A stretch of 64,000 nt of DNA, taken from the IMG/VR virus record IMGVR_UViG_2974786931_000001, positions 32,001 through 96,000 of that record; one strand, written 5' to 3'. The notes beneath the pieces were generated by a model. The model was not told the DNA's origin. It saw only the letters and a program-made list of their open reading frames with translations, and did not search any database. This DNA comes from a virus (lineage: Duplodnaviria > Caudoviricetes). The translations under genes were made by a program, and so were the position numbers. Of the stretch, positions 31,591 to 40,515 are shown one piece after another (within the stretch, counting starts at the first letter, position 1; every line of letters begins with the position of its first letter).

Positions 31591-32024
31591 GAAATATCCT
31601 TAAATGTCAAACTTTCTTTATTATCAAAACGATATGCTGCATATGTGCCAGTCATTTTATTATAAATTCTGATGAATACTGGTTGTTCACAGTTTTTAAG
31701 GATTTGTGTAAATTTAGTTTGATTAGGCGGAGTCATGAATACAGAGCTTTCTAAGATAAGTCCTTCAGCTCGTTCTTGGCATGCAGACATTGTGAATTCA
31801 GCTTCTGTAATAAATGCTTGGTCTGCTTTATTTTTGTTGTAAAATGTTACTGCAAACTGTTTTAATTTAGGAGCATAAGCGAGTTCAACATGCTGTTTAA
31901 ATGCTCCTGATGTTTCAATTTGGTTTCCAGTAAGAGAATATAATTTTTCTGGGTAGCCTGAAACAGGAGACCAAGCTACCGCAGAAGTTGACACACATAA
32001 CAATATACTCACTAATAATTTCAT
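31587..32024 (-). CDS. Hypothetical exported protein
   Basis: Signal peptide MKLLVSILLCVSTSAVA. Confidence 0.7.
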   Translation of the reverse strand: MKLLVSILLCVSTSAVAWSPVSGYPEKLYSLTGNQIETSGAFKQHVELAYAPKLKQFAVTFYNKNKADQAFITEAEFTMSACQERAEGLILESSVFMTPPNQTKFTQILKNCEQPVFIRIYNKMTGTYAAYRFDNKESLTFKDIS

Positions 32025-37177: not shown

Positions 37178-37357
37178 TTAGCTCCAATAATGAACACATT
37201 TGTTAATTTGATTTGTTAATAATTCATTGACACAATTACGACAAATAGGAAATAAGCCATTATCAGAATTAGCTGACTTTTTAAATTCTTTTGTAGACAG
37301 CTTTTCTTTGCATTGCTTGCATTTAATAGTCTTCTGAACTTTCGAAATCTTCATCAT
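37178..37357 (-). CDS. Small zinc-finger protein
   Basis: CKQC...CRNC; start uncertain. Confidence 0.55.
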   Translation of the reverse strand: MMKISKVQKTIKCKQCKEKLSTKEFKKSANSDNGLFPICRNCVNELLTNQINKCVHYWS

Positions 37358-37586
37358 AATCAGAGTCCCATGATTGACTATGGAGTTTAGAAACAATATC
37401 ATGAATAGCTACTTCACGTTCTTCGGAACAATTATCACCAGTTGCAGTTTCGAATTCTGCAATTTTACCAATATGATACATTTCATTACGTAATGCATAT
37501 TCTATGTCCGATGTTGAATCATCAGGCCCATAAGAATACAAATAATTATCGCCAGATTCGCTTTTAAAAAAAATTGCTACGCTCAT
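37323..37586 (-). CDS. e.8-like acidic protein
   Basis: MSVAIFFKSESGDNYLYSY; ATGA-coupled to the NTase. Confidence 0.7.
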   Translation of the reverse strand: MSVAIFFKSESGDNYLYSYGPDDSTSDIEYALRNEMYHIGKIAEFETATGDNCSEEREVAIHDIVSKLHSQSWDSDYDEDFESSEDY

Positions 37587-38515
37587 TGTTCACCTCGTGT
37601 GAATGGTTTAACTTTATCAAAGTTTAGTTTAAATCGTTTAACATAATCATTAGGGCCTAGTTTTTTGTACATAGCCATAACAACAAAATAGTTTTCCCAG
37701 GCAAATTCACGGAACCAGCCTGATGTGATGCTTGTACACACTTTCTCAAGAGCCATTTTAAAGCTTAACTCTGAGCCAGGTTTAAAGTTATTAGGAATCT
37801 GCGAACGCTCTAAAGCTAATACACAGGCTTCTTCATATACGCCAGCCAACTGAATCTCTTTAGGCAAAGCCATGAACTTTTCTTTAGAAGTCATTACTTG
37901 GGAATCGTCTTTCATGTAATATTTGTATGCTGGTTTATCAGTTAATGCAATGGCTTCATGAATTGTATCATGGTCATATGTATAGATATCATCTTTAAAG
38001 AATGCATCTTTAGTAACATCTAACACAGGATGTGCATAACTCAAAGTTTCTTTTTGGCGCAATTTTACAATATCTTCAAGATATGACGTCAAACGAATAT
38101 CTTTATTACGCAAGAAGCGAATATGGTGTTGTGTCTTCTCAAAAAATGGATTATTCTTTTTATAACGATGTGACAATTTAATAGCCAAACACATTTCAGG
38201 TGTGGCCCATTTAAACCCGGTCAAACGATCAAGTCTACAGTTGCCTTCAGCATAATTAAGCAAAAGAGCATTTGAATCTTCATTATGTCCTTCTTTAACA
38301 ATGTACGATTCAAAATGAGTTTCTTTACCACCATGCATACACACAAAAGCGCTCACATTAGGATTAGCTACTTTAACTTCAATGCCAAACATTTTAGATT
38401 TAAAGTCAATCCAATCAGGCTCATCTGCAATAAAATCCCAATCAGAATTTTTTACATCATTAATAGAAATAAGACCTGCATTATACAACGCTCGGGAGCC
38501 GATGACTAATAACAT
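37583..38515 (-). CDS. Uncharacterised Pol-beta-superfamily nucleotidyltransferase-like protein (310 aa)
   Basis: VIGSRAL (hhGS), SDWDFI (DxD) and a third acidic residue in HFESY; GAGG RBS before ATG 38515. Confidence 0.75.
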   Translation of the reverse strand: MLLVIGSRALYNAGLISINDVKNSDWDFIADEPDWIDFKSKMFGIEVKVANPNVSAFVCMHGGKETHFESYIVKEGHNEDSNALLLNYAEGNCRLDRLTGFKWATPEMCLAIKLSHRYKKNNPFFEKTQHHIRFLRNKDIRLTSYLEDIVKLRQKETLSYAHPVLDVTKDAFFKDDIYTYDHDTIHEAIALTDKPAYKYYMKDDSQVMTSKEKFMALPKEIQLAGVYEEACVLALERSQIPNNFKPGSELSFKMALEKVCTSITSGWFREFAWENYFVVMAMYKKLGPNDYVKRFKLNFDKVKPFTRGEQ

Positions 38516-38545
38516 AATATTTTCCTCATTTGTTTCGATAGAAGT

Positions 38546-38575
38546 ACTATAACATGGTCTTATTTGAATGTAAAC
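38546..38575 (-). promoter_or_regulatory. Early promoter
   Basis: GTTTAC-N18-TATAGT. Confidence 0.85.
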
Positions 38576-38787
38576 TAGCAATCTGAACTTGATGAAGTCC
38601 ATACTTGTGGGATAATTTTAATGCTACCTTGGTTTGCACCATATTCATGCACACTGAAAATATCGCTGATATACCCAGAATGAGAAATATGCAGTATTGG
38701 TTCAGCACCTTCTTCGATTGCAACATCAATAAGATTTTCAAGTGCAGTTACAGCATTACGGATTGAAATTTCTAATAGTGCAGACAT
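38575..38787 (-). CDS. WxSS..C-tail micro-protein D
   Basis: Ends WTSSSSDC; AAGGA RBS. Confidence 0.8.
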   Translation of the reverse strand: MSALLEISIRNAVTALENLIDVAIEEGAEPILHISHSGYISDIFSVHEYGANQGSIKIIPQVWTSSSSDC

Positions 38788-38796
38788 AATTATTCC

Positions 38797-39057
38797 TTAG
38801 TTACATTCTTGGGTACTTGAGACCCAGCAACCTTTATTTTCAGAGACATCATACAATGCACGAGTAGTCCATTCCATATCGCCATTAACAGATTTAGCAA
38901 ATGCCTCTTCTTTATCTAAAGCACCTGCTGAATGATATGTCCCACCCATGCCATAAGCTGGATAAATATCGAATGTGGCATTTTCCTTTTCAGCGATTTC
39001 TATTGCTTTATTAATAGCGGCTCTAATAGCTTTTACAGCTTCATCTAGTTCTGACAT
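38797..39057 (-). CDS. WxSS..C-tail micro-protein C
   Basis: Ends WVSSTQECN; AGGAG RBS. Confidence 0.8.
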   Translation of the reverse strand: MSELDEAVKAIRAAINKAIEIAEKENATFDIYPAYGMGGTYHSAGALDKEEAFAKSVNGDMEWTTRALYDVSENKGCWVSSTQECN

Positions 39058-39090
39058 AAATTCTCCTAGGCAGGTTTCCCTGCCATTAAA

Positions 39091-39360
39091 TTAACACAAA
39101 TCGCTTGACGATACCCAACCAGCAGTATGAACTACGCCATCTTCACAATTATCATCAGACATCCAATCAGCTACTTCATAAGCACTATGTTTATAACCTT
39201 CAGGATAATATGTGCTAGTGCTATCATCAAACTCGAAGCTAAACGGAATACCAACTTCATTTGCAATTTTTACAGCTTTAGTGTAAATAAGATTTTCAGC
39301 TTCATCAAGAAGAATTTTAATTGCTGCTTTTGCTGCTAGTTGTTCTGGAGTATAAGACAT
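39091..39360 (-). CDS. WxSS..C-tail micro-protein B
   Basis: Ends WVSSSDLC; AAGGA RBS. Confidence 0.8.
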   Translation of the reverse strand: MSYTPEQLAAKAAIKILLDEAENLIYTKAVKIANEVGIPFSFEFDDSTSTYYPEGYKHSAYEVADWMSDDNCEDGVVHTAGWVSSSDLC

Positions 39361-39373
39361 TTTATTTCCTTAA

Positions 39374-39598
39374 TTAGCAAGAAGATGATTCCCAAATACT
39401 ACCATTTTCAAGAGTACCGAAACCTTCATCATCACCTTCGCCATAGCAAGAAGATGACAACCAATCTTTAAATTCCAGTGTTCCATCATCAGTGTCGACT
39501 TCAATACCATAATTGTTTTGCTCGGCTAATTTAATTACTTCGCCAAACAATTTAGTTAATTCTGAAGCTTTTGCCATTAATTCAGTTGAACGACTCAT
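39374..39598 (-). CDS. WxSS..C-tail micro-protein A (motif duplicated)
   Basis: Internal WLSSSC and terminal WESSSC; GAGG RBS. Confidence 0.8.
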   Translation of the reverse strand: MSRSTELMAKASELTKLFGEVIKLAEQNNYGIEVDTDDGTLEFKDWLSSSCYGEGDDEGFGTLENGSIWESSSC

Positions 39599-39939
39599 TT
39601 ATTACCTCTACAATAAGTTACGAACTCATTTACTGCTTCGAGTTCAGCTAGTTTTTCATGTTGATGTTTCATTTTAATCTTGGTTTCTTGAAGCATTTTA
39701 CTAAGTTTACGGTTCCGTAATCTGGCTGGAAAATAATATATCATCTCTACTATATTAGACCAGAAGAAAGCTAATACCCAAGAAATAAAAACACTTAGTA
39801 TTGTTATTCCTACTACATTAGGCCCATTTATTTCTAGTACTAGAAATCCTGCTGCAAGACTTAAAGTTAGTATAACAGCTATACATACGCCTATACCGCT
39901 TTCAGTATCATATGATATTGGTAATTTAGTTCTTTCCAT
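39595..39939 (-). CDS. e-region membrane protein (e.2-e.4 family)
   Basis: Two TM segments, YFPARLRN, EFVTYCRG. Confidence 0.7.
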   Translation of the reverse strand: MERTKLPISYDTESGIGVCIAVILTLSLAAGFLVLEINGPNVVGITILSVFISWVLAFFWSNIVEMIYYFPARLRNRKLSKMLQETKIKMKHQHEKLAELEAVNEFVTYCRGNK

Positions 39940-40250
39940 TATCTACCTCGGCATTCTGAAATAAAATCTTTAAATGCTTTATATTCTTCGTTATATTTCC
40001 AGCGCTTTTTCATAAGATAATTTCTTACACGAGCAGGGATAAACCAAAGCCACTCAAAGATAAACCAAGCAACTACTGAACATGGTACAGAAATAAGCCA
40101 AGTAGTAATCCAAAATCCAGGAGTTAAGTCTAAATTAATACATGCTACCATAGAAATCAATAAAGATGCTATATTGAAACAAATTAAAGGCATAATAATA
40201 TTATAGCCACATACACGAAATTTAGTAGATTCTTTATGCACGATAATCAC
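39939..40250 (-). CDS. e-region membrane protein (e.2-e.4 family)
   Basis: Two TM segments, FIPARVRN, DFISECRG. Confidence 0.7.
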   Translation of the reverse strand: MIIVHKESTKFRVCGYNIIMPLICFNIASLLISMVACINLDLTPGFWITTWLISVPCSVVAWFIFEWLWFIPARVRNYLMKKRWKYNEEYKAFKDFISECRGR

Positions 40251-40515
40251 CTTTTAAAGTTCGGCGGCATTGATCAATAAAATCTAATAGGTCAAGGTCT
40301 AAATTTTCTATAGGTTGCCATTTGTTATTAAAATAAACTAAATTAGTTCGTTCATTATGAGTGTAATTTTTGACTAATTCATGTAAAGCTAAAAGGGTTT
40401 CTTGATCTGCATCATTGCCGTCATAACAATACATACGAGTGATATCAGCAATTACTATATTATTGTAAATATTAATGTATGAAATACGGTTGTAATCTTT
40501 TGTCGTATAAATCAT
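40234..40515 (-). CDS. e-region hypothetical protein
   Basis: C-terminal DFIDQCRR, shared with neighbours. Confidence 0.7.
   Translation of the reverse strand: MIYTTKDYNRISYINIYNNIVIADITRMYCYDGNDADQETLLALHELVKNYTHNERTNLVYFNNKWQPIENLDLDLLDFIDQCRRTLKGDYRA

Follow-up and report, generated by a model that had tools for sequence, protein, structure and literature searches.

The 64,000-nucleotide stretch of viral DNA analyzed here (hereafter the window; positions 32,001 to 96,000 of IMG/VR record IMGVR_UViG_2974786931_000001, with all coordinates given as window positions) comes from a T4-like phage and carries, on its minus strand, an array of four small genes whose products end in a shared Trp-x-Ser-Ser..Cys tail, followed by a gene for a putative nucleotidyltransferase. 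The first tail gene (39374..39598) encodes a 74-residue protein that ends in GSIWESSSC, has a net charge of -11 and belongs to a two-motif subfamily, with a second, internal DWLSSSCYGE motif besides the terminal IWESSSC. It is followed by genes for proteins of 89 residues (39091..39360; ending in GWVSSSDLC, net charge -11), 86 residues (38797..39057; ending in CWVSSTQECN, YGMGG subfamily) and 70 residues (38575..38787; ending in VWTSSSSDC, net charge -7). The first three belong to phrog_899 and the last to phrog_4882. The initial annotation of this DNA, made from its letters alone, had reported four consecutive genes of this kind, each with a ribosome-binding site, and this is what we find, with a GAGG/AGGA-type site 6-10 nt 5' of each start. 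The enzyme gene (37583..38515) starts 60 bases 3' of the last tail gene and encodes 310 residues from an ATG behind GAGGA, while its longest open reading frame (ORF) starts at 38602 and would give 339 residues. The region matches Yersinia phage phiR1-RT with 91% DNA identity across 91% of 3 kb and is flanked by nudE/lysozyme genes on one side and by a block of small membrane-protein genes on the other.

When the four tail proteins were aligned, M1, S2, E6, A25, W69, S71, S72 and C74 were invariant and an N-terminal helix was shared, while identity to the first protein was 18-27%. A loose version of the tail pattern occurs in 4 of the 1688 stop-to-stop frames of at least 35 residues in the phage genome (167,773 bp), all four in this array, and in none of 1835 frames in T4. 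We then assembled 199 unique tail proteins from 80 related loci and the window. Counted from the Trp, the motif has a Gly at -2, then Trp, any residue, Ser (129), Pro (23) or Ala (20), a Ser in 194 of the 199 and another Ser in 174, with the terminal Cys at +5 (41 proteins), +7 (144) or +8 (8). The resulting consensus, G-x-W-x-[S/A/P]-S-S-x(0-3)-C, is the sole invariant feature of these small proteins. Since all six Ser codons are in use in the 199 tails, with TCN and AGY codons mixed in 129, conservation of the tail is at the protein level. The proteins are strongly acidic (median net charge -9, with 97% negative), and once the last 12 residues are removed 173 of the 199 still form one BLAST-linked family; the remainder, which include bodies of 139-159 residues, are unrelated and carry the same tail. 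Subfamilies are marked by an invariant YGMGG loop or by a second internal copy of the motif, W-x-S-S-C-Y-G-E.

The tail family is large and has no recognizable relatives in the databases that we searched. A profile built from 53 diverse members recovered at least 1249 clusters (at 50% identity, with E up to 0.001) from 1.84 billion proteins, and among the best 150 metagenome matches the tail is present in 148 and the exact Cys end in 142. No relatives were found in Pfam (searched with the four window proteins), NCBIfam, PADLOC or the PDB. NCBIfam returned only non-significant matches for the tail and enzyme queries, including one of the 86-residue protein to the lantibiotic plantaricin C (E 0.16), and PADLOC matched no family for the enzyme, the four tail proteins or an acidic 87-residue protein encoded next to them. 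In the Protein Atlas, the 89-residue tail protein has a model of poor quality, with a predicted local distance difference test score (pLDDT) of 0.63 and template modeling scores all around 0.4-0.5, which yielded nothing usable.

A model of the 86-residue protein, computed from a 102-sequence alignment (pLDDT 89.0), predicts a compact alpha/beta domain with a helix at 3-25, strands at 28-31 and 39-42, helices at 44-57 and 65-69, a strand at 77-80 (C-W-V-S), a turn at 81-84 and Cys85. We read this model as a string of secondary structure. Since W-V-S lies in a predicted beta-strand, with W78-S80 inside strand 77-80 and the last block of residues at pLDDT 72, the tail would belong to the fold rather than being a floppy peptide. 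The initial annotation had envisaged a leader helix followed by a free terminal core. The model weakens that picture, as W-V-S is folded into the predicted strand and only the final S-x-x-x-C turn is less certain.

Some small genes at related loci depart from the usual form. In a 305-kb phage, a lone tail protein (L107, 9959-10764) with three motif copies (WVSSDC, WSDSGC and WSASSQSC) is encoded 30 kb from the enzyme, and its gene is followed by one for a P-loop AAA_33 kinase-like protein. RB69 ORF139c and ORF138c (L003, 3673-3979) appear to be a single tail gene broken by a change of frame, the second piece ending in GAWVSSPALC, where related phages have a single gene of ~100 residues ending in GAWVSSSALC (L016). 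In RB69- and Kosakonia-type phages, the enzyme is separated from the last tail gene by an extra gene for ~83-90 residues without a tail (L003, 4519-4770; L004, 5159-5431; ends CREI and CYEI), which is not found in the window.

We next considered the enzyme. Pfam divides it into DUF7277 (residues 3-89) and DUF7275 (residues 108-293). The initial annotation had pointed to I-G-S-R-A-L, S-D-W-D and a His/Glu-rich C-terminal part in the 310-residue protein, all of which are there, and an alignment of 32 homologues (44-89% identity) retains G6-S7, D25-x-D27 and many charged residues of the C-terminal domain. G6, S7, D25 and D27 are each kept in 92-95 of 96 unique homologues, a distant clade of short enzymes included. 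Other residues kept in at least 93% of these 96 are K113, H116, K127, R153, H182-D183, H186, E228-E229, E236-R237, K258 and R269. In the DUF7275 alignment of 32, C231, C260, H182 and H186 are invariant. An AlphaFold2 model from the 32-homologue alignment (pLDDT 89.8, predicted template modeling score 0.83), judged by its secondary-structure string, predicts a strand at 2-5, a helix at 7-12, a strand at 26-31, a helix at 32-41, three more strands and then an all-helical domain, so ordered that G-S lies between strand 1 and helix 1 and D-x-D at the start of strand 2. In Pol-beta-type nucleotidyltransferases, G-S is found at the strand 1/helix 1 junction and D-x-D at the start of strand 2. The enzyme thus has the hG[GS] and [DE]h[DE]h signatures of that fold (G6-S7 and D25-x-D27, in a predicted strand-helix-strand), and we infer from sequence and model that DUF7277 is a Pol-beta-like nucleotidyltransferase N-terminal domain. 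A candidate for the third carboxylate, E69, lies in the predicted strand 64-73 and is invariant among the 32 homologues but, once the short clade is counted (96 homologues), falls outside the residues conserved in at least 93%. In the C-terminal domain, candidate residues for the H...HD...D metal-binding motif of HD-domain phosphohydrolases are conserved (H116 or H162, H182-D183, H186 and E228/E229) and DUF7275 is all-helical in the model, while DUF7275 proteins have no match to the Pfam HD domain. A Pfam scan of the 32 members returned only DUF7275 and DUF7277, the next best being a single member against Poly_A_pol_cat with E 0.11, and sequence searches of the PDB gave no match for the enzyme.

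The enzyme is present in 730 of 50,697 phage records, which include RB69-, JS98- and KVP40-type phages, phages of Acinetobacter, Aeromonas and Pseudomonas, and actinophages. In a few of these records, a homologue is annotated as "nucleotidyltransferase." The Protein Atlas places the enzyme in viral and Saccharimonadota clusters, with DUF6036 as a lead only (0.91 in 15% of members). We also noticed one 630-residue sequence (P0121) in which DUF7277 and DUF7275 are fused to a PHA02142 OB (oligonucleotide/oligosaccharide-binding) fold and an RNA ligase domain.

The initial annotation had suggested examining whether enzyme and tail genes occur together across phages, and they do so almost universally in both directions. 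In the forward direction, IMG/VR was scanned with two conserved enzyme peptides, which gave 174 relatives, and the best 80 loci were kept. These loci form 39 groups at 70% enzyme identity and lie on contigs of ~90-120 kb, 150 kb, 160-180 kb, 230 kb and 305-371 kb. Since loci were selected via exact conserved peptides in both directions, the samples favor well-conserved enzymes and one tail subfamily. With a strict tail pattern, 70 of the 80 loci have a tail gene at most 3.6 kb upstream on the same strand; with a looser pattern 75 of 80 do, and 79 of 80 have one anywhere in the locus. Tail-bearing frames number 219 of 1627 in this upstream interval versus 10 of 18628 elsewhere. The 10 loci missed by the strict pattern comprise four with variant tails (WVQSSC, WYESRC, WAGSSC and WYNSSESC), four with a tail gene on the opposite strand 6-7 kb away, one with a flank of only 683 nt and one (L012) with a doubtful remnant, a start-less frame of 45 residues. 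Almost every long enzyme has between one and six of these small partners encoded upstream of it. For the reverse direction, we searched with the tail-family peptide YGMGG and obtained 25 loci, of which 10 lie on new contigs. In 22 of the 25 the enzyme lies within ~1.6 kb downstream; two other contigs end just past the tail genes, and the remaining phage (305 kb) has its enzyme 30 kb away, with a tail gene of its own adjoining it.

Other genomes show the same association. Among cellular genomes, sampled as one for each of 185,579 species, the enzyme pattern gave only five loci, all on contigs of metagenome-assembled genomes and all with tail genes just upstream, while T4 has neither enzyme nor tail genes. 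When neighboring genes were clustered across lineages, the tail family alone tracked the enzyme. Comparison of these loci therefore strongly supports a functional link between the enzyme and the tail proteins.

The short enzymes pair with a different family. These proteins of 250-264 residues (phrog_6944), from Gordonia, Streptomyces and Vibrio phages (KVP40-size contigs), have DUF7275 and a shortened DUF7277. None of the 33 short-enzyme loci in IMG/VR has a tail gene; the loose pattern occurs there in three start-less basic frames among 4136, which we take as chance. Instead, 31 of the 33 loci (L129-L161; others of the same kind are L120-L123) have one to four tandem copies of a second small acidic family (phrog_18295/8206/13591), mostly directly downstream of the enzyme. 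Its pattern is GGEG..YF[KR]..G.Y.S[YW].G..WDG..EV.P..TVYE, and across 34 diverse sequences it has one invariant residue, the Ser in G-[YTW]-Y-x-S-[YW]-[DG]-G. The two partner families are not homologous as judged by hhalign (probability 0.6%), and their motifs, with an aromatic-x-x-Ser after a Gly, bear only a weak likeness to each other. Profile searches of the PDB with both families gave designed helical proteins only, or no match. At L131 (3830-4993), the enzyme continues in frame at its C-terminus into one copy of the second family, and there are three such fusion clusters (P0273, P0274 and P0275; 379-387 residues, 46-92% identical in the second-family part), all with DUF7275. In a midpoint-rooted tree of 123 unique enzymes, members of the long clade have tail genes in 89 of 91 cases and the second family never, while members of the short clade (support 1.0) have the second family in 31 of 32 cases and tail genes never. 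Since two unrelated families, both tandem, acidic, fast-diverging and with an invariant Ser, partner with the enzyme, it would appear to work on or with them. Beside the short enzyme of Streptomyces phage TunaTartare, we observed an RNA ligase gene directly upstream (L121, 3162-3821).

Taken together, these findings define a two-part module that is widespread, conserved and phage-restricted, and its sequences point to an undescribed protein-modifying or targeting system. We found no paper on DUF7275, DUF7277, PF23940, PF23942 or the PHROG families concerned, and topical literature searches gave no relevant result. The reading that we tentatively prefer, and which falls just short of being probable, is that the enzyme acts on its partners at the invariant Ser, transferring a nucleotide or other phosphoryl-linked group and so maturing small effectors. 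The donor would be of the nucleoside triphosphate type, with the Ser-Ser turn presented by the strand that bears the Trp and with the terminal Cys acting as a second recognition or reactive group. In this way a single enzyme would process a varied group of small effectors, produced early in infection, whose role would most plausibly be in host takeover or counter-defense. A bolder version seems possible yet rather doubtful to us, namely that DUF7275 enzymes twice recruited unrelated, tiny acidic proteins with an aromatic-x-x-Ser and covalently charge them, for example with nucleotides, to yield diversifying conjugates directed against host targets or defenses, with W-x-S-S..C as a portable client tag in a new phage post-translational system.

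Several points weigh against modification of the Ser. The enzyme matches no curated nucleotidyltransferase family in Pfam, NCBIfam or the sequences of the PDB, and the tail pattern was composed after the tails had been seen. The loci compared are related to one another and are not independent samples. The Trp-x-Ser segment is modeled as a strand within a folded domain, which would fit docking as well as a substrate. An RNA substrate is suggested instead by the RNA ligase fusion and by the RNA ligase gene that adjoins the enzyme in TunaTartare. Finally, the near-invariant terminal Cys has no explanation in this reading, nor has it one in any other.

The tail might instead be an unmodified docking tag, by which variable acidic bodies steer one enzyme to different targets. 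C-terminal docking motifs keep their terminal position with a free carboxylate, as do 142 of the 150 best metagenome matches here; an adaptor role would also suit the presence of one enzyme with one to six diversified partners per genome, the occurrence of the shared tail on unrelated bodies and the predicted placement of the tail strand inside a folded domain, and a second family fused to the enzyme could be a subunit as well as a substrate. On the other hand, the varying distance from Trp to Cys (+5, +7 or +8) is awkward for a rigid dock anchored by the carboxylate, and the sole invariant residue of the second family is a hydroxyl residue, as expected of an acceptor. We regard adaptors as the leading alternative, though an unlikely one. 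We give a still smaller probability to regulation, in which the tail proteins would be pseudosubstrate inhibitors of an enzyme that is harmful or under tight control, or would be neutralized by it, much as in toxin-antitoxin pairs based on nucleotidyltransferases. Toxins and antitoxin enzymes with a nucleotidyltransferase fold are known (MenT, AbiEii and MntA), and a partner gene closely linked upstream is reminiscent of toxin-antitoxin layouts; yet the module occurs in lytic phages, where as many as six divergent partners accompany one enzyme, and hardly ever in cellular genomes (five contigs of metagenome-assembled genomes), and no PADLOC model matches. In addition, the main text of a toxicity screen of 94 phiR1-RT genes names Gp064, Gp136, Gp137 and Gp232 as toxic and makes no mention of the homologues g124-g128 (PMC6893735).

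Similarly improbable in our view is an RNA-directed enzyme, acting in tRNA or RNA 3'-end nucleotidyl transfer or in repair, with the small proteins as cofactors or mimics. The 630-residue fusion with an OB fold and RNA ligase, the RNA ligase gene upstream of the short enzyme in TunaTartare and the position of the module beside tRNA gene clusters in phage TG1 and Gordonia phage BrutonGaster all speak for it. However, only one sequence has the ligase fusion, RNA ligase does not recur as a neighbor across lineages, no family of CCA-adding enzymes or poly(A) polymerases is matched beyond the one member at E 0.11, and the invariant Ser/Cys tails and the second-family fusion are left unexplained. 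A chemistry like that of ribosomally synthesized and post-translationally modified peptides (RiPPs) is very improbable. Here the tail Ser would be activated and eliminated and the terminal Cys would add to it, giving a thioether ring like those of lanthionine or S-aminovinyl-cysteine (AviCys). AviCys and lanthionine rings are laid out as S-x-x-C at a C-terminus, which the tails resemble; the invariant C231, C260, H182 and H186 of DUF7275 and the weak, non-significant match of the 86-residue protein to plantaricin C (E 0.16) lean the same way. Against this, the spacing of the Cys varies and includes S-S-C, the motif lies inside what is predicted to be a folded protein of 60-160 residues, dehydratase, cyclase, flavin decarboxylase and radical-SAM enzymes are absent from the 10 ORFs examined in the window and from sampled neighbors, and the second partner family has no requirement for Cys. 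Least credible of all is that enzyme and tails have no functional link and merely share inherited T4-like synteny. T4-like gene order is generally conserved and the enzyme may have its own promoter, but the pairing holds in contigs of ~90-120, ~150 and 305-371 kb that have no other recurrent neighbors in common with T4-like loci, and the clean switch of partner family in the short clade and the fusions speak against it as well.

We compared the module with known systems that combine a nucleotidyltransferase and a small partner. In MntA-HepT, a Pol-beta-type enzyme poly-AMPylates a Tyr of its small partner. The likeness to this MNT-HEPN system, a type VII toxin-antitoxin pair, is a minimal Pol-beta-type nucleotidyltransferase beside a small partner gene. 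In contrast to it, the partner here is not a HEPN protein, has no Pfam match and is alpha/beta in the model; the enzyme has a large conserved helical DUF7275 and up to six partners; and the module is found in lytic phages instead of cellular toxin-antitoxin loci, with Ser rather than Tyr as the candidate acceptor. The four tail proteins have no Pfam match to HEPN, and the model predicts a helix plus a small sheet, although the R-x(4-6)-H motif was not explicitly searched for. CitX and MdcG, which are holo-acyl-carrier-protein synthases, are nucleotidyltransferase-fold enzymes that put a nucleotide-derived group on one Ser of the small acidic proteins CitD and MdcC. They share with the phage module a nucleotidyltransferase-type enzyme and a small acidic protein with a Ser, but there is no sequence relation, genes for citrate lyase or malonate decarboxylase are not nearby, and the partners here come in diversified multi-copy arrays with a C-terminal motif that has Trp and Cys. 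GlnE, acting on glutamine synthetase, and GlnD, acting on PII, use a Pol-beta fold for AMPylation and UMPylation of a protein hydroxyl, with an HD-type helical domain added in GlnD; their targets are large metabolic regulators modified on Tyr, and the enzymes are cellular. They are unrelated in sequence to the phage enzyme, and the module here is phage-borne. Finally, RiPP pairs (lanthipeptides, AviCys) resemble the module in having diversified small genes, a Ser/Cys terminal motif and one enzyme, but the proteins here are folded, with 60-160 residues, variable Cys spacing and no known maturase. A Pfam scan of the 10 ORFs between 37178 and 40515 revealed no RiPP maturase (LanB/LanM/LanC, YcaO, radical SAM or HFCD), and there was none among 16 sampled neighbor or large tail proteins of other loci. 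Nor is there an unstructured core after a leader in the predicted structure, where W78-S80 is in a strand. By analogy, the module would work like nucleotidyltransferase-partner pairs, and it is a member of none of these systems.

The strict rule that pairs enzyme and partner, the clade-wise swap of partners and the fusions turn several groups of phage "dark matter" genes into the subject of a testable hypothesis. Should the tails be modified by the enzyme, phages would have a new protein modification system together with a portable tag-enzyme pair; should they be adaptors, phages would have a new way of directing one enzyme to other targets. For laboratory work, RB69 (ORF134c with ORF136c/137c) and its host E. 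coli are readily at hand.

Two neighboring genes were tried as a third component of the module and rejected as lineage-specific. The acidic 87-residue protein (37323..37586, minus strand; phrog_2900) is encoded directly downstream of the enzyme, and the ATGA coupling described in the initial annotation is seen as an overlap with the stop codon of the enzyme gene. Its implied membership in the module is not supported, as only 7 of the 39 locus groups have it beside the enzyme, and it is probably a lineage-specific neighbor and not a core part. The other candidate, a Metallophos phosphatase, occurs in 10 of 39 groups. This calcineurin-like metallophosphatase is encoded at most 5 kb from the enzyme in 13 loci of these 10 groups (e.g., L037, 6800-7537), and it might serve to remove a phospho-linked mark or be a mere neighbor.

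As for the transcription signals, a sigma-70-like promoter match (38546..38574, minus strand; TTTACA-17-TATAGT with a TG) lies between the fourth tail gene and the enzyme, and promoter-like sites, this one included, are not enriched in the region (20 versus 20.3 in shuffled sequences). Nothing terminator-like was detected on the minus strand of the region, consistent with the earlier statement that no terminator separates the array from the enzyme.

At the downstream end of the region, an ORF at 37178-37402 (minus strand) encodes a four-Cys zinc-ribbon protein of ~58 residues from an MMKISK start. It overlaps the end of the acidic gene, abuts nudE and has weak PHROG matches to endonuclease VII/HNH-type proteins, and its position is without an annotated gene in phiR1-RT and TG1. 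At the other end, just 5' of the tail array, lie tandem small genes on the minus strand (39595-39939, 39939-40250 and 40234-40515), whose products mostly have predicted membrane segments and share a C-terminal motif, F-[IV]-x-x-C-R-[GK]-[KR], seen in the window as FVTYCRGNK, FISECRGR and FIDQCRR. By their sequences, these genes are another family defined by its C-terminus, with the ends NFIKECRK and NFIKECRGK in RB69 (e.3 and ORF133c; L003) and further members in loci L004 and L012 (10952-12363).

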